Origin: Pecten maximus
Lineage: Eukaryota
Length of the DNA stretch: 64,000 nucleotides
Assembly: GCF_902652985.1 (NCBI RefSeq)
Contig: NW_022979151.1
Location: 1 to 64,000 of the forward strand
Direction: 5' to 3'
The notes under the pieces are model-generated. The model searched no databases. It saw only the letters and a list, made by a program, of their open reading frames with translations, and was not told the origin of the DNA. This document shows, piece after piece, positions 11,482 to 58,999 of the stretch. Position 1 is the first letter of the stretch. Each line of letters opens with the position of its first letter. The position numbers were made by a program, and so were the translations under genes.

Positions 11482-11621
11482 TACTCTCTGTCTATTATAT
11501 ATATATATATATATGTGATCTTTTTTTTTCTCTCCCTAAAAGACTTAGCCCCTAAGTCTCTTTCGTCGGAAACTCACCCCCCGAGTCTCCGATGGACAGG
11601 ATTCCCGTGTGTAATAATTGA

Positions 11622-22672: not shown

Positions 22673-24875
22673 TCATGCCGTAGCTGTCAACTTTGGGTAA
22701 ACCGACTCGACGGTGGGCTCAGAGGTTGCAGAGAGATCTTTGACCTGAACTGGTAAGATGACGTCACCTATGCGTTTATATAGCAATGCATTGAAGGGCT
22801 TTGAAATAATGTTATGGGTCCTGTATGTCAAAAGAGGGTCAAGCTTTATGTCACTGGGCAAACTCCACTTTGTATTAAGTCCGGTTACTTCTACGTTCAA
22901 GCCTGCCCAGTCAACAAATAAAAATGATCGTAACCCGAAGCTAACTCTAAAATCTTTCAATGGGTATTCTGAAGTAAACGACAACGAATTATGGGCGTAT
23001 GGTATTTTCCGTATGGGAATAAGAACTGTTGATTGCTCGTTAGATAATTCGAGCACCAACTGAAGCTTATTAGACCTACAATATTTGTATATCAGATAGA
23101 TCACCAGGGCAATGATTGCTAACGTGCCTAAAATTTCAGATGTGGAATACACATGTTGAAGAGGAAAGGTAAATGGGAGTTCTGTTGTAGTTGGAACGGA
23201 GGGTGTAGAATAATGAAATATTGGTATTGAGTAAGTCTTTTGAGCCTTGTGCAATAACGTAACAACTGTTGCGAGTTGGCGATATTTTTGAAAGAGAGCA
23301 ACGAATGCTAAGAAACTCAAGATCGCTACGGAAGTAGATAAGAGCGAAAACATTAGGGCATAATTGAAACTCGGAACAAACTTAGCTGCATCATCTAGCA
23401 TTGTTTCAGATAGAGTTTGAAAAATGACTCTATTTTGCCTAGCGCTTTCCGAAATGGTCTTGATATCAAGGCTGGCTTTTTGCTCACTAGCTATCAAACT
23501 TGAAAAATTGTGGGTAAAAAGTTGAAAATGTGGAACTTTAACATCTAACGGTTTTAAAAATGCCGAATCAGGTGTCAAGTCGTCTAGAGAGGAATTGAAA
23601 AACTGCTGTAGTAAAATAAGATTCACCGCATGGACCATCGTTATATCGTGTGTTTGGTTCCTACATTCAGACCAATGTTGCGGTATAAAGAATGATTTGG
23701 TTGACAGTGAACATTTACATGGAACCGAAATGGTACAGAATGAGCATCCTTCATAAGTTGTACTACTGTCTTCACAGTTTATGTCAAAACTTGAAATATT
23801 GATCAATAGAAAATGAGAAGAATTCAAGCTTACAATTTTTGGAGCAATGACATCTTGTTTGAAATGAAATACACAATTTTGATTGATCGCTCTTAATTTG
23901 CTATGAAAAAGACTCAGGAAACATGAGTTTTTAGTATCATTCCGAAATACAAGATGTCGTTCACAGTGCCAAATGTGATTGTGATGTGCACAAGATTTCA
24001 AATCTCTCCTTTTCAACTCAGCGAAATATTTATTGTCAGATGACAAATCCATGAGGTTGAAGTTTTTCTTCAATATAATTTAAAATATTCGTTAGGACAT
24101 CGTCCGGAACTAACAAGGGAGATAATTTGCCCTGTAATGTACTTAATACACCCATCAGTAGCTCCTCATATCGGGTCAATACTCTAAGAGACAGTCTTGT
24201 TTGTTTTGTCATAGCAGCTACTAATTGCGCTTGTGCAATTTCTGCTGAAATGAGGGACTTATTGAAATTATCTCCTATTAATTCAATTGCATTATGGTTA
24301 TCAGTTACAGCATCAAACGTGTTGGTAAGCCTATGGTCAAAATTCCTAACAGCAGCAGTAAAAGTACCTATCTGTTTCGAAGCAGCCTGTGCCATTCTCT
24401 GTTGGTTTGCCCTAATCATTGCGACATATCTAGATAATTGCTCTACATCTGAGGTGGTTGAAGTGCCAAACAGAGTTTTAGCTAAAGAGCCTATCAATGG
24501 GAGTAAAGACCTACGTTTCCTACTCATCGAAAAACGGTTTAGATTGTGATGAGGTAAAAGTTTCTTAATCTTTGACAAAATTGTTCCTACATCTAAACGC
24601 GTCTGCTTATGTAGAGCCACAATTTCAGTTATTGCTTCTTGATACCATGGGCATTGTCTACAATTCAGGGGTTTTTCCGATACAAAAGGAAAAAGAGGTA
24701 AGTCCAACTCAAAATAATGTGTCCACTGGTCTGCCGTTGGGTAAAGTGATCCTTCATTCTTGAAGGTAACACCATAGTTTGGTAAGGTTTTTATACCGTC
24801 ACGGGTTGTTATTCCTGCTTTCCCAATTGATACGGCCGTACAGAAAAGTAAACAGAAAAAAGGGAAGGTGGCCAT
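22673..24875 (-). pseudogene. env: Env, class I F-type fusion glycoprotein (baculovirus F/gypsy Env-like); frameshift or deletion near 24040
   Basis: Signal peptide, furin site RKRR followed by fusion peptide SLLPLIGSLAKTLFGT, heptad region, Cys-rich segment, TM at ~23290-23365, second hydrophobic segment at ~23085-23135. Confidence 0.88.
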
Positions 24876-24888
24876 CTCGTCAAGAGAA

Positions 24889-24925
24889 CCTACAAAGACA
24901 CCAAAGGGAGATTTTTAAATAAAAA
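24889..24925 (-). promoter_or_regulatory. Splice acceptor for subgenomic env mRNA
   Basis: Minus strand ctccctttggtgtctttgTAG|G, 14 nt upstream of the env ATG at 24875. Confidence 0.65.
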
Positions 24926-26285
24926 GAAATAATTTCATTATCGATCAATGGTAGTGAAAAAAAAGGTGGGAAATATGCGTCGACTCATATTTAACCCTAG
25001 CACTAGTTTACCCCTAGATTTGCTAAGGTAGGTATTGTTTTTAGACTATCATTGATGTCCACTATCAAAAATAGAGAAAGAAAAAAAAATGAATCTTTAA
25101 AAACAAAAATGGCCCCTAGAACTTATTTCTGAGAATTTTCTTAGGATTTCAGCAGATAAAAAGAATAAACAAAATTCTGTATTCCATGACACGGCAAAGA
25201 CCTTTATGGCTTCACATTTCAATATCACCTAACTACTCTTGAAATCTGGATTTTATCATGAACCTACTATATATTCCTATGGTTCACACAATATCAACTT
25301 TAAAGAAAGGACAACTGAAACTACATACATCTCCTACAAAAATTCGCTTGACATGTTACTATACGTATGCGAAATATTATTGAATCGACAATATATCGAA
25401 CGTTATGCTAACCATAGTGCAATTAAGTGTTAGCATCTCTTAGCTAACTACACTTTTCAGCCTGCTTACCACGAAAGAAAAAAAAAATTCAAAAACACAT
25501 CTCATGTACACTTTCCAATTAAATAATGAAAAGAAAAAAAAAATACCTCTTTCATTCCACTTTTCTACTAAACTTATCACTCTCACATTGAAATGGAAAT
25601 ACTGCTTAAATTAACACTAGTTTTGTGTCTATGGTAACGATATAATGGTCTATACACTTTTAAAATACTTTTTAGCCTTACCTAACCTTTTCTTTTTGCG
25701 CCCTTGTTTTGTATGAGTTCTGTTATATTCATCTACCCATTCTTTTTGAACATTGCTGGCTGGCTCCCATGTTGTAACGCTAGTTCCTTGCCATTTAATT
25801 TTTAGCTGTTGAATCCCATTCCTAACTCTACTGCCTAAAATTTTCTCGAATGGATATTCCTCTTGGGATCTATCGTCGAGGGGTTCAGTACTAGCAGGAT
25901 CGTCATGTGTAGGGTCGGGGTCTGGGATATTCTGTCTCTGAAAATCGACTAGATCATCCTGTGTCTGGTGATCGGGATTCTGGTTCAACTGAGCCTGAGG
26001 TTGGACCTCATTGAACCTATTTCTTTGGTCAGTGTGATAGTAGTGCTTTAATCTAACTGCATTGACTAAGGACTCTACAAGCTTACCTGTGTCTACGTTA
26101 CGTAGTTTGTAGGTGTAGTTGGGACCTAGGCGTTCTATCATGTAAGGACCCTTCCATTTGAGATGAAGTTTTGATGACTCACCTTTTGTGATGTGTGGGT
26201 CTGACAATAATACCGCATCACCTACCTTATAGTCTGGGACTTTGGCTGATGCGTCGTGGTGTACCTTTTGTCTTTCCTTTGCCTT

Positions 26286-28403
26286 TTTAGGTCATCTGAC
26301 CCGAAGGGTCAGGATGACCTATAGTCATCATGCTTCGTCCGGCGTCGTGCGCCGTGCGTCGTGCGCCGTGCGTAAACTTTTCACATTTCAATCTTCTTCT
26401 CAAGTTCCACCAGTGGGATTGAGCTGAAACTTGCCTGAAATGATCCTGAGATGGTCCTGACCAAGTGTTGTTATTTTTCGGGTCAGTCCGAAATCCAAGA
26501 TGGCCGTCATAGCCGCCATTTTGGAAACACATTTTAAACTTCTTCTCAAGTTCCACCAGTGCTGTTGGGCTGAAACTTGCCAGAAATGATCCTGTGATTA
26601 TCCCGACCAAGTGTTGTTATTTTTCGGGTCGGTCCGAAATCCAAGATGGCCGCCATAGCCGCCATCTTGAAAAACACATTTTAAACTTCTTCTCAAGTTC
26701 CACCAGTGCTATTGAGCTGAAACTTGCCTGAAATGATCCTGAGATGATCCCGACCAAGTGTTGTTATTTTTCGGGTCGGTCCGAAATCCAAGATGGCCGC
26801 CATACCTGCCATCTTGAAAAACACATTTTAAACTTCTTCTCAAGTTCCACCAGTCCTATTGAGATGAAACTTGCCTGAAATGATCCTGATATGATCTCGA
26901 CCAAGTGTTGTTATTTTTCGGGTCGGTCCGAAATCCAAGATGGCCGCCATAGCTGCCATTTTGAAAACACATTTTATACTTCTTCTCAGGTTCCACCAGT
27001 GATATTGAGCTGAAACTTGCATGAAATGATCCTGAGATGGTCCTGACCAAGTGTTGTTATTTTTCGGGTCAGTCCGAAATCCAAGATGGCCGCCATAGCC
27101 GCCATTTTGGAAACACATTTTAAACTTCTTCTCAAGTTCCACCAGTGCTGTTGGGCTGAAACTTGCCAGAAATGATCCTGTGATGATCCCGACCAAGTGT
27201 TGTTATTTTTCGGGTCGGTCCGAAATCCAAGATGGCCGCCATAGCCGCCATCTTAAAAAACACATTTTAAACTTCTTCTCAAGTTCCACCAGTGCTATTG
27301 AGCTGAAACTTGCCTGAAATGATCCTGAGATGATCCCGACCAAGTGTTGTTATTTTTCGGGTCGGTCCGAAATCCAAGATGGCCGCCATACCTGCCATCT
27401 TGAAAAACACATTTTAAACTTCTTCTCAAGTTCCACCAGTCTTATTGAGATGAAACTTGCCTGAAATGATCCTGATATGATCTCGACCAAGTGTTGTTAT
27501 TTTTCGGGTCGGTCCGAAATCCAAGATGGCCGCCATAGCTGCCATTTTGAAAACACATTTTATACTTCTTCTCAGGTTCCACCAGTGATATTGAGCTGAA
27601 ACTTGCCTGAAATGAACCTGATATGATCGTGACCAAGTGTTGTTATTTTTCGGGTCGGTCCGAAATCCAAGATGGCCGCCATAGGCGCCATCTTGAAAAA
27701 CACATTTTAAACTTCTTCTCAAGTTCCAGCAGTGCTATTGAGCTGAAACTTGCCTGAAATGATCCTGATATGATCCCGACCAAGTGTTGTTATTTTTCGG
27801 GTCGGTCCGAAATCCAAGATGGCCCCCATAGCCGCCATTTTGAAAACACATTTTAAACTTCTTCTCCGGTTCCACCAGTGCTATTGAGCTGAAAATTGCC
27901 TGAAATGTTCCCGAGATGATCCCGACCAAGTGTTGTTATTTTTTAGATTGGTCTGAAATGCAAGATGGCCGCCATATCCACCATCTTAAAAAACACATTT
28001 TAAACTTCTTCTCCAGTTCCACTGGTGCCATTGAGCTCGAAATTGGTGAGGATGTTAAGGAAGGAGTGTCAACAAAGTTTTGTTATTTTTTCAGCCTTGT
28101 AAAAACTTTGGCATGGCAGCAATGGCGGCCATTTTGTAACATGATTGCACAATCATGGTTTTCCTGAACAACACCTATTTCAAACTTCTCAAATTCCACC
28201 GGTGGGATTCAGCTCTAACTTACCAGAAATGATCCTTAGATGGTCCAGACCAAGTGTTATTATTTATTGGGTCGGTCAGATATCCAAGATGGCCACCATG
28301 GCCAACAGTGCCACTATATACTTGCTACAGAGAATGCATACTACAATAATATAAGGGTTTTAATTTAGAGTCAGATGACCGTTAAGGCCCCTGGGCCTCT
28401 TGT
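26286..28403 (+). mobile_element. Non-autonomous Helentron-associated element (HINE-like) carrying a satellite array
   Basis: 5' GGTCATCTGAC with local hairpin and (GTGCGCC/GTGCGTC) microsatellite, 3' GTCAGATGACC subTIR and AGGCCC-CT-GGGCCT hairpin, inserted in a T-run. Confidence 0.85.
26394..28260. repeat. ~146-147 bp tandem satellite, ~12 copies, with a 586-bp four-monomer higher-order unit
   Basis: cttcttctcaagttccaccagt...tccaagatggccgcc units; diagnostic variants recur 586 bp apart. Confidence 0.92.
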
Positions 28404-30510
28404 CTATGTTTACCTTGGCTATTTTGTGTGTCATGGACTTATTGTCGATGTATTCCTGAATAGCTTGTCTATGATTTTTGCCTACCTTGTCTTTTGGGAT
28501 CAGTTGAACATCGATTGGCATCCTCATTTCGGTGCCATGCACCAAGAAATACGGGGAGTACTCAGAAGACGATGATGGCGCCATTCTGAATGCCATCATG
28601 ATACCTGGAATTTTTGACGGCCAGTTAGTCTGGTCACCGTCACTACAAGCTCGTAAGCACTGTGCTAGCGTACTGTTCATACGCTCAACCACGCTGTTCG
28701 TTTGTGGATGGTACGAGCTAGTAGTGCTACGGCCAATGTCAAATAATTCGCACAGGGCACCTACTAGTTTGGAAGTGAAGTTCTTACCTCTGTCTGATAC
28801 GAGATAGCGGATTGCTCCATATCGTGCTATGATATTGGTATACAATACTCTAGCAACTTCAGTAGCCTCTTGGGAACGCAAACAAAAAGCTTCCGGCCAC
28901 TGTGTGAAGCTATCTACGACCAACAAAATGTAGGTATATTTGTCCTTACTTGTAGGTAGTGGTCCTAGGATGTCCATGTGCCATCTTTCAAACTTACCTG
29001 CAACCGGTAGCGGTGTTAAAGGTACCTTAGTGGCATGGTAGTTGCGTTTAGCCAACTGACACGCTTGACAGGACTGAACATAGTCCTCTATCTCAGCGTA
29101 CATATTAGGCCAGTAGTACCTAAGTTTGATAGCACCGTACGTTTTTTCAAAACCCAGATGTGCACCGCCGGCATGGCTATCATGGAATGATTCCATTACA
29201 TTTCTATGAAAGCCATTTGGGACAGCGACACGTCTGACAATTCTGGAAATACCTGGAACAGCTTTTGCGGCGAGATTCAGAATGTGATACAAAACACCAT
29301 TTTTCCCAACTTCATAGGAATTTGACTTAGCATCAAGCTGTCTAGCAGCTCTTTTGTTTTTAGGAACGATACCCTTTTCCTTATAGTCCAAAATTGGTTT
29401 AAAATGTGTATCGCCATGTTGTGACTGAATAAGTTCTTGCAACTGCATCTCGTCTACATTAGGTGTATTACCTGGTTGGAATTTGGCAAGATCGATAACT
29501 GGTTCATCGTCTAGCTCAGGTGCACTGACCTCCATGACACTGGGTATTGTGTCTGATGTACGAGTAATATCTGTCTTGAATTCGATTACACAGGTCTCAT
29601 CCGTGTTGTCGTCGACTTCTAATACTTCCATGTCGGGGGATGCTGTAAGAGCATTTACCGACAGAGACTTACCTTTTTCATCTCCAGTGTCGTAATCTCG
29701 ACGAGATAAGGCATCCGCGTTTTGGTTTGTTACCCCAGGTTTATGATCAATAGAGAAGTTGTACCCTTGGAGTTTTAATGACCATCTAGCTAACCTACCT
29801 TGCCTGTCCTTGATTGTCTTTAGAAACTTGACAGTAAGGTTGTCTGTATACACTTGGAAGTGTTTATTAGCAAGGTAAGGATGGTAGACTTTTATGGCTT
29901 CAACGAGAGCAAGACATTCTCTTTCTGATACATCCCAGTTGAGTTCATTTCCTCGTAGAGCTCTACCTCCGTAAGCTATCACTCTTTCTCTTCCCTGATC
30001 ATCTTTTTGACCTAAGATATGACCTATTGCAGTACCTGATGCGTCAGTGGCCAAAATAAAAGGCTTATCCATCTGGGGAAATGCGAGAATGGGAGGAGAG
30101 ACCAACGCCAATTTCAGTTTTTGAAAAGCTTGTTCGCATTCGTCAGACCAGCGAAATTTGGTATCTTTCTTAAGTAGCGCGTTCAAGGGTTTCGCTACCT
30201 TTGCGAAGTCTTTGATAAATCTCCTATAGTAATTACAAAGACCGGTAAAAGCTCTAACGTCTTTAACTTTTCTTTGCGTTGGAAAGTTTCTTACCTTGTC
30301 TGTTGTTGCAGGGTTCACTTCAATACCATCTTTGGACAGGAAATGTCCCAAGTACTCCACTTTTTTCAGTGCAGATGGTGTAAGTGCGTGTTGAAATCTT
30401 TGCTGAAAATTAGTATGTCATCCACATAGACCAGTACATATTTCCAGAAAAGACCCCTGAGCACTTGTGCCATCACCATTTGAAAGCTCATTGGCGCATT
30501 CATGAGACCA

Positions 30511-31010
30511 NNNNNNNNNNNNNNNNNNNNNNNNNNNNNNNNNNNNNNNNNNNNNNNNNNNNNNNNNNNNNNNNNNNNNNNNNNNNNNNNNNNNNNNNNN
30601 NNNNNNNNNNNNNNNNNNNNNNNNNNNNNNNNNNNNNNNNNNNNNNNNNNNNNNNNNNNNNNNNNNNNNNNNNNNNNNNNNNNNNNNNNNNNNNNNNNNN
30701 NNNNNNNNNNNNNNNNNNNNNNNNNNNNNNNNNNNNNNNNNNNNNNNNNNNNNNNNNNNNNNNNNNNNNNNNNNNNNNNNNNNNNNNNNNNNNNNNNNNN
30801 NNNNNNNNNNNNNNNNNNNNNNNNNNNNNNNNNNNNNNNNNNNNNNNNNNNNNNNNNNNNNNNNNNNNNNNNNNNNNNNNNNNNNNNNNNNNNNNNNNNN
30901 NNNNNNNNNNNNNNNNNNNNNNNNNNNNNNNNNNNNNNNNNNNNNNNNNNNNNNNNNNNNNNNNNNNNNNNNNNNNNNNNNNNNNNNNNNNNNNNNNNNN
31001 NNNNNNNNNN
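30511..31010. other. Scaffold gap (500 N)
   Basis: Run of N. Confidence 1.
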
Positions 31011-31142
31011 TACTGAATCTGATACACTATTTTTGAATACAATATTTACAAAATTGTCGTTCAGTTCTGTAGAAAAACAAGGACTAAGAGAGTTATTCGG
31101 CCTAGACAAGGGAACCCCTTTAACCTGGTCAGGCGAAAAATC

Positions 31143-32270
31143 CTATTGGTTGTGTTTATTCTTCTGACAAACCCTTGCCAAATGACCTTGTTTCTGACAA
31201 GCGAAGCACTGCTTGCGTTGTCTGAAGACCTCGCAGTCTATTTGTTTATGGTCGTAAGCACCACAACTCCAGCAACTGATACCGTTTGATTGATGTGCAT
31301 TGCTAAAGGACTGGTGATTAGGCCTAGATGTAGACTTGGGTTGAGAAAAATTGTTTGACCTTGCATGATTTCTCCTATTGCCCGAGTGACCCGAATTATT
31401 AAAGTGACCCCTGGAATTCCCTGATTGGAAACGACCCTGCGATGCACTCTCTGTTAAAACGTTTACACTTGTGTTTAGTTGTGACGTCATCACCGAAATA
31501 GCACTGAGAATTTTATCAAGAGCCTCTGAAGATTGACTTTGATCTGGGGATTTTGCATTTTGACTTGACTCTGAAGATGCTATGTCTTTGGTGTTGTTAA
31601 CCATAAGGGACCTCTCTGCTATCTCTGCAGCCCTCGTAAAATCATCTAATGTTTTAGGATCCGATTGTATAACCGGCGTTCTGATATCAGGTTTAAGACC
31701 TGCCATTAAAATGTTGAAAACTTGCTTTTCATCTACTTTTGCTTGCCTTGCCTTACACCTTACAGACGTTATGTACTGGGTTACAGGTTGCATGTAACCC
31801 TGAACCATACCATGTAGCTCCCGATACGGAATCCATGTCATGTTTTCCGGAACATTAAAACGTTCTTGAAATTTTTGGTATATTTGATCTATGTCTTTCC
31901 TTATGGGATCAGGTAGCTCCTGAAACCACTGACTAGCTGTCGACTGACTTTTGATGCACATCGAAAACAAATTTGGTTGAAGCGCTTTATCTGTCTGTGC
32001 AAACGTAACATAGTTTTTAAACTGGTCAATAAATGTGTCTGCTTCTTCTTGAGATTTGGACTCACCCGCAAATTGTGTTATAGCCTTATGAATGTTGACC
32101 GCCATACCTTTTTTCTTTAATTTTGGTTGTTCTTGTTGAATAGTATCCTGTTCGGAGTGTTCTTCTACTGGCGGTGTCTGTAGATACTGTTGGCTGTTCA
32201 AGAAGTCTGGTCCATACTTTCTAAGCGGGTATCCGTGCCGTATATCGTTGATAGGCTGGTTACCAGACAT
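31143..32270 (-). CDS. gag: Gag with two CCHC zinc knuckles
   Basis: CWSCGAYDHKQIDC and CFACQKQGHLARVC; capsid-like region; first in-frame ATG at 32270. Confidence 0.92.
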   Translation of the reverse strand: MSGNQPINDIRHGYPLRKYGPDFLNSQQYLQTPPVEEHSEQDTIQQEQPKLKKKGMAVNIHKAITQFAGESKSQEEADTFIDQFKNYVTFAQTDKALQPNLFSMCIKSQSTASQWFQELPDPIRKDIDQIYQKFQERFNVPENMTWIPYRELHGMVQGYMQPVTQYITSVRCKARQAKVDEKQVFNILMAGLKPDIRTPVIQSDPKTLDDFTRAAEIAERSLMVNNTKDIASSESSQNAKSPDQSQSSEALDKILSAISVMTSQLNTSVNVLTESASQGRFQSGNSRGHFNNSGHSGNRRNHARSNNFSQPKSTSRPNHQSFSNAHQSNGISCWSCGAYDHKQIDCEVFRQRKQCFACQKQGHLARVCQKNKHNQ

Positions 32271-32288
32271 CCGGGACCATCGTGGAAA

Positions 32289-32296
32289 CTCCACCA
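32289..32296 (-). promoter_or_regulatory. Primer-binding site (TGGTGGAG, tRNA-Ala-like, short match)
   Basis: 3 nt inside the 5' LTR; complementary to a CUCCACCA tRNA 3' end. Confidence 0.6.
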
Positions 32297-32299
32297 AGC

Positions 32300-34119
32300 T
32301 GTGACAAGGCTGGTTGCTAGGGAATTAGCTCGTATAGGCCAGCGTTGTCACGTAGTATATAGGAATCTTCAACAAACAAAGATGAATCTTGTTTCTGTGT
32401 CCAAATAGATGTTTTATTCGTGGCGTCTTGTTCGAAAGTCAAATGATACATAATATACAATATAAATTTGAGGAATGAAACGTTTTATATTAATTTACAC
32501 ATTTACGTACAAATGGAAAGATCGAAATAAGAACAAGTTATATATTGTAACAATGATATCAAAATAATTGTTTATAATAAGTATTAATAAAACCACGGAC
32601 TTAGAAAGTCTAATTCCGTAATAACTACGTTAGAAATGCATAACGCTTATACAAAGGAACGAGTCATTAAATGACCCTATATACAGTGTATAGAATTTCG
32701 CAGTTCAAGGTCACAAACGACCCTAATTATAACTGAATACTTGTGGCACAATATATATACATAACATGACATATAAAACAAATACTTTCCAATAATGCAA
32801 TGAGAAAGGTAAAACTAGCGAAATAAGACTCAAAATGGCTATCCGCAAAAATGTGAAAAACAAAGGGAACTTACATGACTTTATAAATACTAAATCGAAA
32901 CCGAAATATAATGTCCGGAATAATATTGATTTAGGCAATTTGTGTGATTCAATACTTTAAGAACGAATGCTGATTCTCATAAGAAGACAAATACCAATAA
33001 TGAGAATTCCTACTCATCAATTTAAACTTAAAATTGATTACATATTTAATGACGCGGAACTATAAACCACATGATAAATGCGAACATCAAAAAGCAAAGA
33101 TTCTTTATAAAGCAAATACTACAAACCGATAGTTATTAACTGACTTTCTATTACAAGAAAATATTAACAATGATATATACGAAATATCTTTACAACGAGA
33201 AACTAACGTTATTAAACTAAATTCATACAAAGTATATTCTTAAAACAAGCATTATTAAAATGCATATCTATTTATAAAAATAGTATTAAGGCAAGAATAG
33301 TTATCTACATATCTAGAAACAAAAACGGAAAACTTTACATTCATAAATCATCAGAACATATAAAATTAGGTTGATAAACAAGGAAAGTTCTTACCTTCAA
33401 CAAACAAAGATGAATCTTGTTTCTGTGTCCAAATAGATGTTTTATTCGTGGCGTCTTGTTCGAAAGTAACAAGAACCACCTGGACACAGTAAGTTAAGAA
33501 TCATCGGAACTTTCCTAAACCAATCAAATTACGTTTTACAAATTACTTCGGCTGAAGTTTCATCTATTAACCAATCAAAACTAATTTAGCGTAATGGTCA
33601 GTAGCTCTGTTTGTTTACCGAACTGGCCATGACCGGTTAATTACTGGTTTAGACCTGTCACCAATATCTCAGGTTAGCTGAGGTATTGTGACGTAACAAT
33701 TGTCACTAGACCCCTTAATTGCCGGCTAAGTGAAAACATTTCTTTTGAAGTTATTGGACATATGGCCTGACACTTATTCCTAAAACGACTCAGAAATAAC
33801 AGCTTGGAACACCTGTGATCGAATCTTTTAAGGACAGCTTTTTATATGTTTGTTTATCGCTGACATATTGACTGACATTCTAACGAAGGCTTATATCTTG
33901 TAAACACTTTGTAATCCTGATGTGTTATAATACAACTTTTAAGGAATAGCGGACATTCCTGTTCAAAATAAAATCTTAAAGTCAAAATTATCTTTCTCAT
34001 TTTAAGTGAAATACAAAAATTAAATTATCTAAACTAGAAGTCCTATTGATATAAAATATATCGTTTAATTTTTGCTTTATTTTGAAACCAAATATGACAG
34101 AGTGTTTAACACTGCGACA
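32300..34119 (-). repeat. 5' LTR (1820 bp, long form with ~1-kb extra segment and 73-bp duplication)
   Basis: 32367-32439 is duplicated at 33395-33467; the rest matches the 3' LTR. Confidence 0.9.
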
Positions 34120-35218: not shown

Positions 35219-35424
35219 CCTGAGGGACCGTACACACCCCCAAAACACTACTACTCAAACCGAATGTTTTCTTGAATATATATAGAATAGAAATACCAGG
35301 GCCAGATGAAGACATTTCATCTGATACAAATGTAACTGTCTGACTATAAAATCCAATTTTAAATTTCTTTTAATATGACCTCAGACCCTGACGTTTCTCA
35401 GGGCCTTTGGCCCTTTGATTTGGT

Positions 35425-36736
35425 TATAGGCATGGTAAAGGCCCTTGTGATGCACTAGGTGGGATCATCAAGAAAGGTGCCGAAACTTTTGTGAAAAGTC
35501 GGAAAGGAACCATCAGAGATGCAAAGGAGTTGTTCCAATATTGTGAATCACACTTGAAAATAGGAAGTGGAATTGAGTGTGAACACAAACGAAGAGTCTT
35601 TTTTATTTTGATAAGATTAACAGAAAAGGGAGCAAAATCTGATACCCTAATAACTTTTGAAGTAACTCGGCAGTTGCATAGTGTACAATCAGTTGAGCCA
35701 GGTGTAGTGAAAGGTCGAAAATTTAAGCTGCTTTTGCAACTCCTGCACATCTCACAACAACAAATCAGATACTTGTGGAAACAAGGCATACATTCATGAA
35801 TGGAAGACCCACTATCTCAATGGAAAAAAATGTCCTTCCAAAGAACCCAACAGCTGTAGCAAGAAAAAGAAGAAACAAACAACTGCCAATGAAGGGAACA
35901 CACTTCATGATTAAGACAAAAACATTCCTTTCACTAAACCAAGGACCAATAACGAGAAAAAGTCAAAGAATAAGACAAAATATATTGGAAATATGCTGGA
36001 CATCTTCAGGAAAGCTAAAAATCATGAACTAAAACTTGTGGTTTTTTCGTATGCTAAAGATATGGAAAACATAGAAGTACGCCCAAATAACATCATAGAC
36101 GGTGGATCATTTGTCATTAACAAACTTGCTTATGGTTTGCTGCCTGATGATATACTTGATCAGGGAAGTTTGAAGTTACCAGTATGTGTTGGGGGCTGAT
36201 GGAAATTGCCTACCCCGCTGTGGTTCTGTCCATGCTTTTGGTCTTGAAGACAAACACAATGAAATTCGTGCTAGAATTGTGATTGAACTGACAAAAAATG
36301 AAGACATGTATCTAGATTGCAAACATCTAGCCCGAGGAACATCTCTTGTTGACCGTGAGGCAGCCAAACTTCCTGGTCACTTTGCTTTATACTCGCAAAA
36401 CTACACTGCTGGAGATATTGTGACTGAAACACCATAACAAGGATCTACCATCAAGAAGTTCTTGATATTTCACGTAGGAACTCCTTCATGGGTATTTGGC
36501 AGCTCTTCGGTCTTGCGTCAGTGCTCAAATGCAGAATATTTTCGGTGTATCCCAAGCTAGGAAACCCCTGTGTAAGACAAGATCTGCACAGGCAGATATT
36601 ACCAGTTGGCAAACCTGAATTTGAAGATGCATATTTCATGTGGACAACTACAAGAGAAGATATGACGAAAGAAACACGTTGGGTGCCAAACCACTTTGTT
36701 CCTCTCTTGTCAGTTGCAGCACCAACACCTCCATGA
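35425..36736 (+). pseudogene. Degraded DDE transposase C-terminus (Sola-like) followed by a vertnin-like OTU cysteine protease domain
   Basis: HGKGPCDALGGIIKK; ADGNCLPR (catalytic Cys motif), MGIWQLFGLASVL, WVPNHFVPL (His motif); several frameshifts and stops. Confidence 0.65.
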
Positions 36737-37127
36737 AATAACAGTTTTGTTCATATAGTGGATTCCATGGATTGTAGCTTTTCAGAAAATGAAGACCAGT
36801 CCATGGATATTTCTGGGCTTCATGATGTGTTGGAGCCATTTGAAGAGGTCAGTATTGATACATATATATACATGTTGTTTCAGCTCGTGGGTGCTCATGC
36901 ATGCTTTTGCAATCCATAAAAGAGTGAAGTTGTCCGTTTACTTTCCCTAACTTGTCTCATTGGGGTTTCCGTTCTAATCCTGATTTAAAACTTTTTGGTG
37001 ATCTCCTTTGTTTTAATTCCCTATTGTTTCTGAATACATTCATGTTTCCGAATCATAATTATACATCATGAGTATATTATATATGAATGATAATAATGAA
37101 AATTATGTTTATTCTTGCTCTTTTCAG

Positions 37128-38685
37128 ACATTTACAGATGTTATAGAGAATCGGCAGATCCACACAGATCCCGAACAGCTGCCATTTGGTAAGCATGAAA
37201 GATATATTTGATGTTTAATACATGTACTAGTTTACAGCTGTCCAATTATATTAATCGAAAAGAAATACCTTACAACTGTAATGCCTAATCCCTTATGTAT
37301 GATGATTTCATTTCCAGCTGAGTAGTAGTACTTGTGTATAAGGAAAATAATATGATTCTTTATTCTGTTAGATTTGCCAGAATTGTGGACAACATTGGAG
37401 CCAGAGATGCTACAGGAGCTGGAGCCATTCTATGAACCACAGATGCCAAAGGAGTATGAGAAAGTCAAGGGCCCTGAGACTGTCAAAGTGAGTTTTATCT
37501 CAATTTTCAAACAATATGTTAAAATGCGAACTGGTAATAATCAAAAGGAAACTAATGTTATTAGATTTTGGTATTGTGGTAAAATACAACAAAAAATGTA
37601 TCCCAAACATATAATCATGATTTTCCTTGAAAGTTTATCTGAAATAAGATGCCCAAACAAACATTAACTCTGTCCTTTCATTACTATAGGATCAGGATTC
37701 TAAGACATTCCAGGCACCAGAGACAGCTCATGAACCACAGCCAGCCCAAGAACCCAAGACCGCCCAAGATCCCAAGACATTCCTGGCACCAGAGATAGCC
37801 CAAGAACCCAAGATATACCAGGCACCAGAGACAGTCCAGGAACTCGTGATATTCCAGGTACCCGATACAGTCCAGGAGCCCCAGATAATTCAGGCACCAG
37901 ATACAGTCCAGGAACTCGAGATAATCCAGGCACCAGTGACAGTCCAGGAACTCGTGATATTCCAGGTACCCGATACAGTCCAGGAGCCAAAGATATTCCA
38001 GGCACCAGTGACAGCCCAGGAACTCGAGATAATCCAGGCACCAGTGACAGCCCAGGAACTCGAGATAATCCAGGCACCAGTGACAGCCCAGGAACTCGAG
38101 ATAATCCAGGCACCAGTGACAGCCCAGGAACTCCAGATAATCCAGGCACCAGTGACAGTCCAGGAACTCGAGATAATCCAGGCACCAGTGACAGTGCAGG
38201 AACTCGAGATAATCCAGGCACCAGTGACAGTCCAGGAACTCGTGATATTCCAGGTACCCGATACAGTCCAGGAGCCAAAGATATTCCAGGCACCAGTGAC
38301 AGCCCAGGAACTCGAGATAATCCAGGCACCAGTGACAGCCCAGGAACTCGAGATAATCCAGGCACCAGTGACAGCCCAGGAACTCGAGATAATCCAGGCA
38401 CCAGTGACAGCCCAGGAACTCGAGATAATCCAGGCACCAGTGACAGTCCAGGATCCCAAGATAATCCAGGCACCAGTGACAGTCCAGGAGCCCAAGATAA
38501 TCCAGGCACCAGTGACAGTCCAGGAGCCCAAGATAATCCAGGCACCAGTGACAGTCCAGGAGCCCAAGATAATCCAGGCACCAGTGACAGTCCAGGAACC
38601 AGAGACAGCCCATGAACTAAAAGCATTCCATGCACCAGAGATACACAATGAAAAAGAGGAAGTCCAAGATCCTGAGACAGTCCAA
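37128..38685 (+). CDS. Spliced downstream exons of the vertnin-like gene, including a 996-nt exon of 11-aa repeats (QAPVT[AV]QE[LP][EK]II)
   Basis: Exons 37128-37188, 37372-37487 and 37690-38685 with GT-AG sites and matching phases; 33-nt tandem unit. Confidence 0.6.
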
Positions 38686-39751
38686 GTGAGTATCATATGA
38701 ATATTCAAACAATAGGTCAAATGATGCTATCAATAAATTAATAAAAAATGTATCATATTCAAAAGAAAAGTGATCTTACAAATTAGCTTTTTGAAAATAT
38801 GGTAGTTAAATAAAGTGCAGTCTACAAGCATATAAAAATCTTAATTTCTTGGCAAGTAGGTGTGCAAAGTAATGAAATACCAAGCTAGAAATGTCTGCAA
38901 ACTAACTTGTTACAGTTCATTTCATTAAGCGAAGACTCAATGGTTTTGAGAGATAAGAGAATTTTATTTATGTCTTCAATTTTATCACGATTGTCTCACT
39001 ACTTCAGGAGGGAAGAAAAAAGACATCCAGGGAGTATGAAACACCCCAGCGCTTAGAGAAATGTTCAGTCATGGACAGGTAAATCATACTAAATTTTTTA
39101 ATATGAATCAGAAACATTATCTTTAAAACATGGGCATATGATCATGAACAATCCTAAACTACTTAACATAAAATAAAGATAAATATTTCCATTTTTGAAT
39201 CACAACCATTATGATGATGTAGATCATGTTTTGATCACTGATAAACCTAAAAGATGTAAAATCACCGTCTTTTAGACAATGAGATATGATAATGAAGGAC
39301 AAGCATGTAGATAAACTGGCACTATAACCACCACCAACATGATTTTTCTTCTGTCATTTATATCTTCCTGTTTATCCATGAGTATATGTAATGTTTTTTG
39401 TCTTTTATAATGAAATATATCATGTTTCTTAATCATGGATAAATCTAAATGATGTTGAAAAGAATGCTTAAAACAAGGAATGATATCATGAACAATCACA
39501 TATAAAGACAAAAACATCATTGGCACATGTGGCATTTAAACACTGTTTAAAATGCAAGATTTCTAATACTTTGTTGCATAACTTTACAAAATAATGGAAT
39601 ATAACATGTTTCTTAATCATGGATAAATCTAAATGATGTTAAAAAGAATGCTTAAAACAAGGAATGATATCATGGAATCACATATAAAGACAAAAAAAAT
39701 CATTGGCACATGTGGCATTTAAAAACTGCTTAAAATGTAAGATTTCTAATA

Positions 39752-40418: not shown

Positions 40419-40815
40419 CTAAACACTACTAATACATTCCAAAAAAGAATTCTGGCAAACAAGAAATTTCAGAATTCCGGCAAACATTTCTGTGACCTTA
40501 ACGTCATAGGGTGTCCTCAATTCTACTTCTTCAAACCCAGAGGTTTCCTCAATGGATATTGCTTCAAGCTCTCTGATAAGATCTTCAAATGTTGGGGTAG
40601 GAGTAGAGGTGCGGGGTGGTGCACTTGGTTCAGTAATACTGGGTAGAGTGATATTTTGCAGCGGGATCATTGATTCACTTGGATTGTCTATGGATTTCAT
40701 GAATTTTCTCTGTACAATAATGATGAGGGTAAGGATGACGATAGTGACACCAAAAATGGCTGTGATTGATATGAAAACTGAAATAATGAATCATGGAAGT
40801 GTTAGGGTTGTGAAC
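40419..40815 (-). pseudogene. Orphan terminal exon encoding a TM helix and acidic/Pro-rich cytoplasmic tail
   Basis: Acceptor attatAG at 40816-40817; FIISVFISITAIFGVTIVILTLIIIV-QRK then PSAPP...EEVEL; one in-frame TGA upstream of the TM. Confidence 0.45.
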
Positions 40816-41120
40816 CTATAATAATAATTCTGTCATTCACATCTGTTTGGTACTGCGGGACCACATGAGATGCGTGCGCAGCTTCATTATTCATAGCGTG
40901 TTTACTTCTAAACGGGTCAGCAGAAACTATTTTACTGTGACCGTTTTCATACTTATTTAATACTTTTCCCATCGTAATATCACTTAATAGTGGTGATGGT
41001 ATGACTGAAAAGAGTATATAGTATACGTTTGCGAGTTTTATTTCCACTTTAATAAGTGAAAAACTCTGTTTTTGATAATATTGACCACGAGTGGTCAAGC
41101 TGGACAGTCGTCTGTGATCA

Positions 41121-43845: not shown

Positions 43846-44852
43846 GTATTTGCCAGTGGAACTAAAATACAAATAGAGAAGGAAAATTGTTTTTTTGCTA
43901 AATCTATTTCAATAAAAAGGCATTTTGAGAATTTCCCTTTTGTTCAAAGTCATTTTTCCTTTTGTTCAAAGTCATGATCAGTGTCTGTGTCAGTGGTCCA
44001 TGTCAAGCAAATTAGAAAATGTGTATATTTTTTTTTATTCGAAAATTTTGCAACTTCTTTTAAGTAGTGTCTGAAATCACTATTAAGTTCTTGATCGTTC
44101 ATGAATAGAAAGGGAAATATCAATAATTGCTACATTATAATTGATCATTAATTTTAAAACATCATGACTAGATGAGCGAGTTATCTCCTTTATCTTTCCC
44201 TGATGAAAATTAGGTAATTAGCAAGTTTTAAATTGTTATAAGTGAATTCGAACAATACTTTATGTAAATGAAGCTTAATCAAGTATAATACATCATGTTC
44301 TTCTTTCTTAATAACTTTTTTCAACCCAACCCTTTTATCAGATAGCAATTTGCCCGGTTTCCAATAAAAATAACTGGCATCTCTTAGTTTGGGGCCTGTT
44401 CTCATTGTAGTAGTTGGTGACTACCTCACCGAACAACATGCAGGTGGGCTGTCGGATGCCGGCGTCCAGGACACAACCATGACAGCACTGAAAATAAATA
44501 TATTACTCTTACATGTTTGATTTTCTGTTTTCTGTGATAATCACCTTTTTATTTTGAGGTGGGTCTCTTTTTAGTAGTTGGTGACTATCTCACTGAACAA
44601 CACATTGGAGGCCCGTCGCACACCATCAACAGTAAGGAAAGTACTTTAAAGTGTCTTGTCCAAGGACAACTGCAATTTACAATGTGACCTTTGACCTACT
44701 TTTTGAAAATTTTGTTTTGAATTTCAACCCATTCAGTGACTTATTTTGTTTTCTTACAACTCTTGTTCCTTAACAAAACCTATCTAGATAAGCTGAAATA
44801 AGAGTGTCAGTTACATATAGTTAGTATACTTTGTTTAGGCTGGGTAGTCATA

Positions 44853-53690: not shown

Positions 53691-54071
53691 TTCCAGATCC
53701 CCCGCACTATAAAAGAGACTACAACTCCATTCTCCTCACAATCGCTTGACCATCTGTATAGATTTTAATTTTGAAAATATGGCAGCAAGATATTTTTCGG
53801 TAATGGACAGTATGCCCAGTTGTCTGTTTACAGGGGCGTTACCTATGTCCATATAAATGGACGGAATAATAAATGCGCCACCGTTATCGCACATGAATTT
53901 GTAGACATTATGCAGAACTATGAATTGTTGGGAGAGATACAGTCCCACATAAAAAAGGTACGTATGAAAGTTACTTTATGAAATTCATTTTTTCATTAAC
54001 TCACGAATTTGAAGAATAACTAATCAAAGCAATTAACATGATGTTCTGTATTGTATATGCCGATACTATAA

Positions 54072-54822
54072 ATGATAAAATACAAACAATCATTTGGGAG
54101 AGCCTCACGCTGGAGTGCCACCACCAAACCTCCAGAGCCTTCAAAACCCATTAAACACACACCACCACCAATCGAACCATCACCATCGACTACAAAAACC
54201 AACACAAACGAACGAAAATCTAAGGTAGATGCCGACCACCATAGACGACGAACTCCGTCACAGCCGTCGGTCGACACCTCCAGAATTACCAAACGACCTG
54301 CCACTACACCCCCTCAACATCAAAGAACACCAAAATCTAGGGTACGGATCAATAGGCATCCCTCCCTAAACAAAAAACCGGTATGACGTTCTTATGGACG
54401 ACAGTGAACAACATATAACCAACGTTGCTGTTACTAGACAGCCTATACCAGGCAGCCCGAAGAACGACCAGCATGAACCAGGATAATGGCCAATAATAAC
54501 AACACTATCATACAATGGAATATACGCGGACTACGGGCAAATATAGAAGAGTTTCAAAATTTATCTAAAGAGTTTAGACCTGCCTTATTTTGCCTACAGG
54601 AGGTCATGTTAAAAAACCCAATTACCCTTAAGAAATTTCTCGCTTTATAATAGTACAACTATAGGAATCAAAGCAGCAGGTGGCGCAGCTGTAGCTGTCA
54701 ATAATAATATTCCTCACAGAATGATCACGTTAAGCACAAATTTACATGCTGTCGCTGTATGTGCAACTTTACACAGACAAGTGATAACCTCGTCTCCCAA
54801 CTTCCAACACCATACGTAATTC
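54072..54822 (+). mobile_element. Fragment of a related I-clade LINE: ORF1 3' end and ORF2 APE endonuclease start
   Basis: MANNNNTIIQWNIRGLRAN...FCLQE from ~54486; Pro/Thr/basic ORF1 tail. Confidence 0.7.
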
Positions 54823-54897
54823 ATAACGGATGTTGACCAGCTAACGGGAAAAGAAAATCCAACTTTATTCAAAGTATACATTATTGAGAAAACCCAC

Positions 54898-56154
54898 CCT
54901 TGTTGGGGTGTCCATAGAGGGAGCCACTGCTTTCAAGATGGTGGTGGTGTCACTCGGTGGGGTGTTCGTGTTCTCGACAGTGTCACCCATTGTTGTAACT
55001 TCTCGAAGGCGTTCCTGAATCATATAAATAGTTATATATAAACACTACTGATTATTTACAAGCAAGCAAGTATTGTTCATTCTCAAGATACCACCAATAC
55101 ACCTAAACTCTCCCATAGTATGCCACCATAAACTCTAAGATAACTACACATATCATCAAATAGAATAAATAGTATATTATTATCACTTGTTTGTTTGTTT
55201 GTTTGTTTATGTTTTACGGCCCATCGACAACTAGGGTCATTTAGGGCCAAACAATATACTAACATGTTTTATTTTGTAAGTTAAAATCAGATAAAATTTG
55301 TCATTTTTAAAAGCATCCGTATTGTATATTTAGATCATTATGATAAAAAAGTTGGTTAAAAATGGTAAAATATGTATATGTACGAATAGATTATGTGAAC
55401 TTTGTTATATAAATAGAACGTGAAAGACAGTAACGTAAAAGACATCAAAGTCTATAAAATAGATCGATTTCTTTCAAGTAGCTAAATATTGTTTTCGAAT
55501 CCACGGAACTGAAAAGGGTTTTCATATTATTATCACATTTTTACCAATTTATAGTTGATATCAATATTACGAGACGGATGTTGACCAGCTATCGGGAAAA
55601 GAAAATCCAACTTTATTCAAAGTATGTATTATTGAGAAAACCACACAAACATCCGATTTGGGTATATGGTCATTTGAAAAAAAAACAGGAGTGCTTATTG
55701 GTTAAGTCAGTGTTCTAAAAATAGTTCACGTGATCTTCAGGGAACAATTTCGTTTACAGAAACGTTAAATTCTAGTTTACATATAATTACATATCATAAA
55801 TTGTATACTTACACAAATTTGCACATGTCCCTCCAAGTCACTGCATATAACTGCCTTGGTGGGATATATCTTGATAGCAGGGCTGAAGGAACCGCAGGCT
55901 CCTATGAGGCGATCCCCCCTTCTCCAGCCGTTAACTGTCAACTCTGTCTCGGAGTACACGTGTTCACCACCGCAGCAGAGGGTGAACGTCTTCGACCCAC
56001 CTGTCGTCCACTCCCCATTCATCGTACACATGGTTGTGTCGGGGGTCGCTGAATTAGATATCAACGCATACCGTAATGGTGGTCCAATACATACTGATAA
56101 GCAGATATGCGGTAGACCTAAGAAACAAACGATCACTAGTACTGTCAACGCCAT
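54898..56154 (-). pseudogene. Spliced secreted/membrane glycoprotein remnant (signal peptide, Cys-rich exon, Thr-rich exon)
   Basis: Exon 56154-55813 ends at GTAAGT in phase 0; exon 55014-54898 encodes ERLREVTT...TPTR in phase 0; duplicated intron sequence at ~54827 and ~55575. Confidence 0.55.
55187..55525 (-). mobile_element. Short 3' fragment of the I-clade LINE
   Basis: Same 3'UTR and tail; flanking repeat atattattatcac. Confidence 0.85.
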
Positions 56155-56973
56155 GTTGTCTAGCGCATGGGCGGAACGAAATACCACAAAAGACGAAAAT
56201 AACGCTCGAAAGCGAACAGGATATATTAAGTCTATAACACTATTACTACAATGTTACATTTTGAGATAAATAAATGGTTTCGTTGATGAGCACATAATCA
56301 AAACATCATGACTCATTTGTTATAATACAATCATTCATAAGTTAAACGTAATGTTCATTTTACACTGGCGCTCCATAGCTAAAACACATTTAGTATTACG
56401 ACTGCACAACTCAAGCCAAGAAAGAAAGGGCACCCTTGTGGTTATGTCGTAATCTACAGAGTCCCATTTCGTTTTGATAGGGTGAGTTAGTGCACTATTC
56501 TTGAATAGAAAAACACTTTGGAGTATGACGGGCTTGTATGGACAGGAAATTGTGTGGTATTACCTTAATCTTAATGTGAGCGCAACATCCTCTTCCATAA
56601 TGGGAGGTAGGGTATAATTAAACCTTTTTAAAATGGAATTTGGCACCATCATGTCTGACGGGCTTGTATGAATAGGAAATTGTGTGGTTTTTATTGTCTT
56701 CGATAAAGGAAGGTGTTTTATTTAAACGCAACATCCCGATACTCTAAACAAAAAGGTTGTTTTTTTCAAATTTAACATTAAAACTTGCATCGATAGGAAA
56801 TGGTTGCGGTTTTTTTAGTGTATACTTCAATAGCGGACGACTCTTCAAATAAAGATTTTGTGGAAGTTTGACATCCGTTTAACAGTAATTGATACACACC
56901 CACGTATACTAAGAATGTATATATATAGAAGGAGAAATTTCTCCTTACATCGACACTGCTCTTAGAATACCAG

Positions 56974-57621
56974 ATGGCAGCTCTGATTGTATATGGTCAG
57001 GTTGAGACCCAAACCACTAACGGAAAATCTAAGCTGATATGTAACCTGAACCCGAAAGTGAAAGTGGCAGTAAATCGTTTTGATGGGAACCAGGGCCTGT
57101 ACATACACATCAACTCGAGGGGTAAAGGAATAAGCTTATCCTATGAAGAATACGAAGATCTATGTACCCTTAAAGTCTGTTTGTTTGTTTATGTTTTACG
57201 GCCCATCGACAACTAGGGTCATTTAGGGCCAAACAATATACTAACAAGTTTTATTTTTAAAGTTAAAATCAGATAAAATTTGTCATTTTTTAAAAGCATC
57301 CGTATTGTATATTTAGATCATTATGATCAAAAAGTTGGTTAAAAATGGTAAAATATATACATGTACGAATAGATTATGTGAAATAATATGTACGAATAGA
57401 TTATGTGAACTTTGTTATAAATAGAACGTCAAAGACAGTAACGTAAAAGACAACCTCTAGTGCAGTCGGCCCAGCAGCAACCTATACAGCATCAACAGGC
57501 TGCACCAGCACAAGGCAACTTACATCACCGGCAAAGTGCACCGATTCAGCCTCGTCATGTCCCACAACAGGCACAGATTCAAATTTCTGAACCTTTAAAC
57601 ATTTGGGAAGATTTTGCTTGA
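56974..57621 (+). pseudogene. PC4-like protein with Gln-rich tail, interrupted by a LINE 3' fragment (57177-57450)
   Basis: VKVAVNRFDG..LYIHI..KGISLSYEEYEDL; TATA-like run at ~56917; Gln-rich frame 57451-57621. Confidence 0.65.
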
Positions 57622-57796
57622 GTGAAGATGTCATGTCGTGTGTTCTTTAGACTGGACAATGAACTGGTCGATATACTTGAAGGTTGAAGTATAACATCTA
57701 TCCATAAATTTTACATTTATACTTGAACAAATAACATCTGGGTATGAACTGTTAAAAGTAACTAGCGCATGATTTTGTTTATGTTTTACGGCCCAT

Positions 57797-58999
57797 TGTA
57801 ACAAAATGGGCTTAAAATGGGGTTAAACAATAGTTAAAACAGAATATAAAATAGTAGCTATCCGAGACAGCAGAACATAGGTCAAAAGTCAAACAATGTT
57901 TGACTCCAGTAAACAACACCTGTGATCATCATGTTGGATGCATCGGCTGATAACAATGGGCGAGGCAGACAGCATCACGACTAGTGATGGATTACCAGGG
58001 GGTGGCTGAACTTGAGCTAGCAGATCGCTGTCCCACAATATTGATTAGTACAACAATAAGATTTATATCGAAGAATCTAAAGAAAGGTTAGGGGGGAGTA
58101 GAATGCACCTATTGTCATGCGCGCACGTGCCATTTAATTATATGTAAAATGGGCGGTACCATCTCATGAATAGTTGATATTGGATTGATTGTTAAAAGAT
58201 ACTTGGGAAGGATATTAAGTCGGGACACGGGGGTCGGGGGGACTTTAGAGAGAGAGAGGGAGAACCAGAGGGGAAGCAAGCTGGGCTTTCCGGGGTGGTT
58301 AAGACGGCAAGAGAATGGAAAGTACTACTTAGGATACCATTGTATATCATGTAACAACGCTAAAATAACGGATTTCAATATTGTCGTACCCTAGGGTTGT
58401 GTTACACTAGGGGTACTGATTTTGGTGCCGTGACCAGGATTCGAACGGGTGACTATGTGGAAAGTTAAAAACTGAAAAGTGCAAAGCAAAAAAAAAAAAA
58501 AAATTATAGACAGACGGTGATCAACAGGATGCGAAATATTCTGCAAGTGTTCGGATTATGTCTCTCGCTCACAGAAGGTGAGTTAATGGGGGGGATCTAG
58601 ATCAACCAAAAATTCAAATTTAATTGGGGGAATATCAATCAAAAAAAAAATGGCAGAACAAAATGTAGGAGTTTTGGTTGAGAATCTGACAGCCCAATTG
58701 GTCGGACTAACATCGACAATCAATACACAGGGGCAGGGGATAGCTAGTTCGGTTTCAAGTTATGAGGGCGATCCAAAAATATTAAGACTGGATTAGGTCT
58801 ATAGATAAATACGCGACACTCACTGGTATAAATTATGATAGGATACGATTGGTTGCATACCAATCAAGCAAAGGTCCAGTTGGGGACTTTATTAAACGGT
58901 TCTTAGAAGAGAACCCAGGGGGGACATGGGCTGAGCCCAAGGTGGAGCTGACAGCCAGGTTCGCGGAGATCAGTGACTCGCAGCATGCATTTATGCTGC
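57797..58999 (+). mobile_element. Gypsy 5' remnant: LTR 57797-58406, tRNA-His PBS at 58423, degraded gag
   Basis: TGTAACA...TGTTACA; TGGTGCCGTGACCAGGATTCGAAC; gag related to the one at 60680. Confidence 0.8.

Follow-up and report, generated by a model that had tools for sequence, protein, structure and literature searches.

Near the right end of a 64,000-nucleotide stretch of Pecten maximus DNA (NCBI RefSeq assembly GCF_902652985.1, contig NW_022979151.1, positions 1 to 64,000 of the forward strand; the window below) lie the remains of two genes that point away from each other. The window is transposon-rich animal DNA, and these remains occupy 54.8-57.8 kb. On the forward strand is gene A, which encodes a small protein with a probable PC4-like fold. 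On the reverse strand is G2, a predicted gene with a leader, a Cys-rich head and a Thr-rich stalk. The same window holds a Polinton at 7-21 kb (Polinton 1), with a small open reading frame (ORF) called B and a predicted membrane-protein gene called G1. The original prediction held that the locus at 54.8 kb is a second Polinton-like remnant that repeats a pairing of PC4 gene and spliced glycoprotein gene seen in Polinton 1, and that such viruses carry a glycoprotein cassette with conserved exon architecture and exchangeable ectodomains. The main value of our analysis rests on two things: an intact, predicted five-exon gene, G1, among the core genes of a scallop Polinton, and a previously undescribed gene family with a probable PC4-like fold, the A family, dispersed in scallop and other contigs. 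The second locus is a dead fragment and cannot alone carry a general claim on variable glycoprotein cassettes.

The remnant is bounded on both sides by retroelements. On the left, a fragment of ORF2 of a long interspersed nuclear element (LINE; 54030-54825) meets G2 intron 2 at 54825/54826, a junction also spanned by a contig of sequencing run X7; beyond it nothing of G2 was found. Reading rightwards on the reverse strand, the start of intron 2 is a 69-bp sequence (54826-54894), followed by predicted exon 2 (54898-55014). Intron 1 holds the 3' end of a 5'-truncated LINE (55193-55527, reverse strand) with a 13-bp target duplication and six other matches in the window. A second copy of the 69-bp intron sequence lies at 55574-55642 (96% identical by blastn and alignment). 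Just ahead of it in the reading direction, a possible vestigial 27-nucleotide exon (55647-55673, reverse strand) is a speculative assignment by eye; it has a donor-like site and lacks a canonical acceptor. Predicted exon 1 of G2 (55813-56154) is separated from gene A by an 819-bp spacer (56155-56973) with a 39-bp direct repeat, a candidate divergent promoter. The right flank (57774-58406, forward strand), outside the remnant, is a scrap of LINE tail (57774-57796) followed by a long terminal repeat (LTR; 57797-58406) with TGTAACA...TGTTACA ends, a primer-site-like sequence and gag downstream. An ACTACT sequence at about 58325-58330, considered as a Polinton terminus, was rejected because it falls within this LTR.

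Gene A, too, is broken by a LINE. ORF A seems to have 80 codons only because its frame runs on into the 3' fragment of a LINE (57175-57452, reverse strand), which has no target duplication. The gene proper ends at 57174 after 67 codons (56974-57174, forward strand), which contain the PC4-like domain. It picks up again at 57454 with a Gln-rich C-terminal part of 55 codons and a stop (57454-57621, forward strand). This part matches the tail of P0002, a relative from Mizuhopecten (E=1e-11), with 32 of 55 residues identical, and about 18 residues of P0002 are missing from gene A at the LINE break.

Among 1.84 billion representatives searched, A has 12 relatives. Two, OWF35837.1 and XP_021340436.1, are Mizuhopecten proteins whose contigs differ in length. 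The other ten come from ENA, Logan or JGI contigs, P0011 and P0012 from contigs of 34 kb and 24 kb. To a Mizuhopecten protein ORF A has 79% identity. The two Mizuhopecten models (P0001 and P0002) differ by a frameshift near residue 77, so that one annotated tail is the shifted frame of the other. An A-family orthologue is named in none of the other annotated bivalves, and the few copies of A are decaying. This distribution is patchy, which suggests a mobile gene. Viral-contig scans with the A-family alignment, P0011 and P0012 found nothing that would give the family a context. One metagenome match (L001) was rejected as a chance match to a bacterial ABC transporter.

The family is probably built of two exons. 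Among contig-derived relatives, eight of the nine long enough to judge have Val at the same or the next column near residue 79 (P0005 is too short, and P0013 and P0014, which diverge earlier, were excluded). In the called ORFs this Val is followed by Ser (six relatives), Arg or Met and then by unrelated sequence. Such a pattern is what a prokaryotic gene caller would produce by reading through a phase-0 GT(A/G)AG donor.

Is the product of gene A a PC4-like protein? The Pfam PC4 model (PF02229) matches ORF A with E=9e-4 and 19.1 bits, below its gathering score of 25 bits, and the KGISL-type segment aligns with model positions 36-51. The predicted structure has five strands and a helix (predicted local distance difference test, pLDDT, 86). 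In a structure search it matched MoSub1, a fungal PC4 orthologue (4bhm; Z 6.1, root-mean-square deviation (rmsd) 2.4, 54 residues aligned), and human PC4 (6ycs; Z 4.3, rmsd 2.1, 45 aligned, 27% identity). A relative, P0004, was modelled in place of ORF A as a symmetric homodimer. Its score was 0.37 against 0.00 for the best control, with at least 80% of contacts agreeing between runs and pLDDT of at least 65, although this may be memory of solved PC4 dimers. The mark for a homodimer was reached by 21 of 30 solved homodimers and none of 23 monomers from microbes, and by 17 of 29 and none of 30 from eukaryotes. Three results weigh against the assignment: the Pfam model is matched by only one of 13 A-family members (E<=0.1), Foldseek with the ORF A model returned nothing at E<=0.001, and the MoSub1 score lies under the tool's warning level of 8 and is tied with that of the unrelated KhtT (Z 6.4), so that the structural match is moderate. 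On balance we consider a PC4-like fold probable for ORF A. Like PC4/Sub1 proteins, the model has an antiparallel sheet followed by a helix, and the relative may dimerize as they do. ORF A differs in falling under the Pfam cut-off, in its extra N-terminal strands and in the C-terminal Gln-rich tail.

What would a PC4-like fold say about origin? PC4-like proteins dimerize to bind nucleic acids and are present in phages, as in the T5 homologue (PMC8545432). Bivalves have 2 to 18 PC4 genes each, an expansion presented as a host trait (PMC9223095), so the fold by itself is no Polinton marker. These expanded bivalve families count against a Polinton reading of the remnant.

In Polinton 1 the counterpart of A is ORF B (10092-10304, reverse strand), an intronless frame of 71 codons between the integrase and the packaging ATPase. 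The two frames that the original prediction had aligned by eye, at 56974 (forward) and 10304 (reverse), are present as quoted. They can be aligned with 14 of 52 residues identical (27%; pairwise E=2e-6), and the alignment score of 60 was equalled by 1 of 5000 shuffles. A and B are also each other's best non-self tblastn match within the window (E=0.001-0.003). A profile of the A family finds B with an hhalign probability of 79% (E=1.6e-5), and tested against shuffled B the A relatives reach z>=3 in 10 of 14 cases and z>=5 in 4 of 14.

Other results count against close kinship. In an hmmsearch of the 1074 six-frame peptides of the window, the A-family profile gave B 12.5-13.2 bits and ranked it equal with an unrelated decoy peptide at 53.8 kb. 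B lacks the A family's invariant Phe, and it has neither tail nor intron. It matches PC4 in neither Pfam nor the PDB, and a homologue search with B found none. The PC4 label receives moderate support for A; for B the one link to PC4 runs through A. The support for kinship of A and B is weak, and we read it as genuine yet distant, reaching to a common fold and not to one element family.

Polinton 1 is identified by an integrase with a chromodomain (rve E=2e-9) and a packaging-type ATPase with weak IVa2/A32 matches. Family-B polymerase motifs and a capsid-like ORF have no library match; we take them to be what their names imply. Within this element G1 (15200-17512, reverse strand) has five predicted exons (17512-17222, 16954-16898, 16587-16522, 16108-15925 and 15450-15200) with intron phases 0, 0, 0 and 1. 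Its predicted introns span 267-474 bp, and its frame is open over 282 stop-free codons. In order, it encodes a leader, a Cys-containing head with three N-glycosylation sequons, three Thr-rich exons, a membrane helix and a tail. The gene sits between a polymerase-side ORF and a 22-bp tandem array. As predicted from its sequence, G1 is an intact five-exon type-I membrane-protein gene, and this is the solid part of the analysis, stronger than the remnant itself.

G2 shares part of this plan. Its first exon has 114 codons, nine of them for Cys, and a phase-0 GTAAGT donor. Its hydrophobic leader (hydropathy 3.2 over 11 residues at positions 2-12) would serve as a signal peptide. Exon 2 is an open, Thr/Pro-rich frame of 39 codons, 10 for Thr, in phase 0 at both ends, with a TCAG acceptor and a GTGGGT donor. 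The exon features originally described for G2 are thus borne out, with predicted splice sites. The name glycoprotein is not: the two exons contain no N-glycosylation sequon, and an acceptor scan of 53.7-55.8 kb found no membrane or tail exon. The heads of G1 and G2 were searched against Pfam, PHROG, NCBIfam and the PDB. That of G2 matched nothing in these four, gave Atlas matches under 0.9 only, and when modelled without an alignment was unusable (pLDDT 38). G2 exon 1 has no homologue among proteins of 86-277 amino acids and nothing in viral-contig scans.

How distinctive is the shared plan? We scanned the window for frames that open with ATG, run for 80 codons or more, and have both a hydrophobic leader and a phase-0 GTAAG/GTGAG donor. 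Of 177 frames, 3 passed, namely G1 (from two starts) and G2. A second scan for Thr-rich phase-0 exons passed 7 of 1669 acceptor-like sites, four of them in these two genes; under stricter thresholds only G1 exon 2 was recovered (1 of 504 sites). The thresholds were fixed after both genes had been seen, so the counts show distinctiveness in this window only. A common design of first exon and Thr-rich exon is supported at this level. The heads themselves are not alike, as originally noted: their alignment score of 28 was equalled by 1640 of 5000 shuffles.

Duplicated intron sequence is likewise found in both genes. G2 has the 69-bp pair described above, and G1 has its own duplicated piece of 71 bp (82%). 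There is no match between the duplicates of the two genes, which we take most readily as relics of exon-plus-intron duplications that happened separately. Because G1 and G2 have no detectable DNA or protein similarity, the homology of the two genes itself lacks support. The data would fit just as well with two unrelated genes that converged on one plan for a membrane protein. The claim of exchangeable ectodomains on a conserved cassette rests on two genes that share no sequence and has no direct support; we regard such a cassette as unlikely.

Does the remnant come from a Polinton? Several results speak against it. Eleven Polinton 1 proteins searched against 35.3-64 kb gave two matches at E<=0.5 (best E=0.2), neither in the remnant. 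Three pieces of the Polinton 1 polymerase (tblastn), a retroviral-type integrase and queries like the major capsid protein (MCP), the minor capsid protein and the ATPase all went unmatched there, the protease not being among the queries. The remnant has no blastn (E<=1) or tblastx (E<=0.1) match to Polinton 1. Its ends show no inverted repeat besides LINE pieces and are flanked by LINE and LTR sequence. Its observed/expected CpG ratio (0.79) is lower than that of the G1 region (1.14) and of the Polinton genes (1.1-1.3). The missing membrane exon and the orphan first exon of G2 count here as well. Nor is the layout the same pairing, as had been proposed: B and G1 are co-directional and about 5 kb apart, with two genes and a 3-kb tandem array between them, whereas A and G2 stand head-to-head 819 bp apart. 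In the search for relatives with genomic context, viral-contig scans with MCP-like, ATPase and integrase queries found nothing.

Because the remnant is truncated, missing core genes lower the case that it is a Polinton, not the case that it came from one. What recurs is the presence, at two loci, of a PC4-like gene only a few kilobases at most from a leader-plus-stalk gene. The case for Polinton origin comprises two independent resemblances to Polinton 1 genes, the patchy, decaying A family, and the observation that about 99% of the dsDNA viral regions reported from bivalves are of Polinton or polinton-like-virus type (10.1101/2025.04.19.649669). With no core gene or terminus, and no relative with context, it is indirect. 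The label Polinton-like for the second locus is not confirmed; a Polinton origin is plausible. That the remnant is a dead accessory module of a different Polinton-like element we regard as evenly balanced between true and false.

An origin in some other large mobile DNA element or integrated DNA virus, one with PC4-fold and spliced membrane genes, is a competing account. The likeness to Polinton 1 would then reflect a gene pool shared by invertebrate DNA viruses. No core gene ties the remnant to Polintons, A is predicted to be spliced and to have a Gln-rich tail while B is not, vertebrate Maverick core genes are intronless (PMC8097293), and PC4-like proteins are found in many unrelated mobile elements (PMC8545432). 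Against this stand the near-monopoly of Polinton-type sequences among bivalve dsDNA viral regions (10.1101/2025.04.19.649669) and the fact that the sequence next to the remnant has no hallmark of another kind of element; we think such an origin unlikely. A host origin seems to us about equally unlikely. A would be a divergent member of the bivalve PC4 family and G2 a lineage-specific surface or secreted protein with a mucin stalk, both perhaps pseudogenes; they would be neighbours by chance or form a haemocyte gene pair, and G1 would be a similar host gene captured as cargo. The introns and the PC4 expansion described as a host trait (PMC9223095) fit this account, but A has no orthologue in other annotated bivalves and G2 none anywhere searched, the few copies of A are decaying, and the genes are compact, as the short G1 introns show.

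Two further sets of data bear on the host account. The spacer holds five TGYGGT sites, three of them directly after AGGAAA; five sites are reached by 1 of 75 tiles and 0 of 2000 shuffles, in a count where the motif was picked after being seen and two sites stem from one 39-bp repeat. We take the sites to be RUNX-type, and as such a cluster would suit a host promoter. The region upstream of G1 has no TGYGGT site. The cluster is a weak hint of blood-cell expression of the A/G2 pair. Read data also fit a host locus. The non-LINE part of the remnant forms one near-identical contig path in two DNA runs from different studies (run X3 has 5 differences over 1578 bp), and no diverged second copy is listed at 85% likeness, where contigs show presence and depth gives no copy number. 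Nothing here points to a young multi-copy family. Two runs guessed to be RNA cover intron and spacer and contain no splice joint, which is evidence neither way. Finally, G2 may have begun a longer gene, its membrane exon surviving at 40.4-40.8 kb on the same strand, moved 14 kb off by putative nested insertions of LINE, Harbinger-type and DIRS-type elements. The frame at 40422-40790 encodes a hydrophobic helix, basic residues and an acidic tail; a phase-1 acceptor-like site precedes it, as one does G1 exon 5. It shows no similarity to that exon (BLASTP E=1.2; tail score equalled by 1172 of 5000 shuffles), and the intervening DNA holds host-like exons at 44.4-44.6 kb. We consider this very unlikely.

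If the reading of a Polinton-derived accessory module is right, which we rate an even call for the account as a whole, the following can be proposed. The segment would be a dead 2.3-kb piece of the accessory region of a Polinton-like endogenous scallop DNA virus, from another family than Polinton 1. Two divergent, intron-containing genes would once have shared one short promoter. The product of A would be a small PC4-fold homodimer with a Gln-rich tail, the fold being modelled for A and the dimer for its relative. To judge from its family, it most likely bound single-stranded or melted DNA for strand-displacement replication, transcription activation or both; it could have served a strand-displacing, protein-primed polymerase, and the tail would suit activation. 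G2, whose leader, head and stalk exon are read from the sequence, would yield a protein targeted to the endoplasmic reticulum, whose Thr-rich stalk, probably O-glycosylated, bore a head held together by disulphide bonds. By analogy with G1 and adenovirus E3, it was most likely anchored by a membrane exon since lost and displayed at the surface of the host cell, where it would act on host defence. The duplicated intron pieces of both genes suggest that stalk length was altered by tandem duplication of phase-0 exon-plus-intron units. As the sequence shows, LINE insertions, a deletion junction and an LTR have since ruined both genes, and the remainder of the element is gone.

Several other features of the window deserve record. 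The Polinton 1 integrase (8978-10105, reverse strand) and a Pecten maximus protein share 233 of 239 aligned residues, which suggests recent activity or transfer among scallops. Terminal repeats of this element were not found. About 3 kb of 21-22-bp tandem array (11600-14570) lies mid-element where two transcription directions meet, and G+C falls from 50% (7-11 kb) to 37-45% (14.6-21 kb). The polymerase contains an endonuclease-like insert (19787-20104, reverse strand), presumably a VSR-type motif. Mollusc pPolB2 elements have such inserts (PMC10748475). An LTR element is inserted in the polymerase (21100-34119), with gag, pol and two envelope-like ORFs at 22.7-24.9 kb, and its second LTR is interrupted at 32440-33394. 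The envelope-like ORFs are presumably class I fusion-protein-like. Outside these elements, a decayed DNA-transposon-like region at 35400-38700 (forward strand) contains an 18/36-bp coding-like tandem repeat and a frame that we take to be OTU/vertnin-like. An orphan membrane-helix-plus-tail frame with an exon-like frame upstream (40422-41010, reverse strand) may be where another gene for a surface protein ends. At 44411-44630 (reverse strand), two short units that resemble exons carry duplicated donor-side intron sequence and probably stem from a host gene.

How do these genes compare with known systems? Polintons or Mavericks (Orthopolintovirales, 'adintoviruses') are the nearest relatives to consider, and ORF A resembles ORF B of Polinton 1; the remnant differs in lacking their defining genes and termini. 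Variable accessory regions and intron-containing cargo have been described in them (PMC8097293; 10.1101/2022.07.12.499685), as have membrane-active accessory genes (PLA2X, GasderminX and cupiennin-like; PMC8502044) and a mollusc polymerase group (PMC10748475). In the accessible main texts, supplements lying outside the search, we found no report of a PC4-fold gene or a mucin-stalk type-I membrane gene in a Polinton, and the terms PC4, glycoprotein and intron are all absent from the accessible text of a coral survey (PMC11131425). Genes of either kind may already be present in the supplement maps of PMC8502044, among its 'Adintoc' genes, or in Repbase. Nematode Mavericks share with the scallop genes intron-containing genes in a variable region and an element-encoded glycoprotein with signal peptide and transmembrane segment, MFUS-1; their cargo consists of proteases and kinases, and MFUS-1 is an 866-residue class III fusogen (10.1101/2022.07.12.499685). 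G1, with 282 residues and a small head on a Thr stalk, has no fusogen features.

Adenoviruses are a virus group related to Polintons. Their E3 CR1 proteins, such as E3/49K, form a variable cassette of short-tailed, type-I surface glycoproteins whose targets are immune cells of the host, and the heads of E3/49K are Ig-like (10.1101/2023.02.23.529489). By function E3/49K offers the closest analogue that we can name; the heads of G1 and G2 are unassigned, and no link in sequence or fold supports the analogy. It is tempting, if a long shot, to suppose that mollusc Polinton-type viruses carry an E3-like variable cassette of spliced surface glycoproteins, with unrelated heads, a phase-0 mucin stalk tuned by exon duplication and RUNX/ETS-type blood-cell promoters, together with a PC4-fold protein serving as replication single-stranded-DNA-binding protein or transactivator. 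Were this so, part of the bivalve 'PC4 expansion' and of its 'stress genes' would be viral cargo. If the link holds, animal Polintons would carry immune-modulating surface proteins and a single-stranded-DNA-binding-like factor of their own, which would argue for a true infectious life in host tissue and for a deep parallel to the E3 strategy of adenoviruses.

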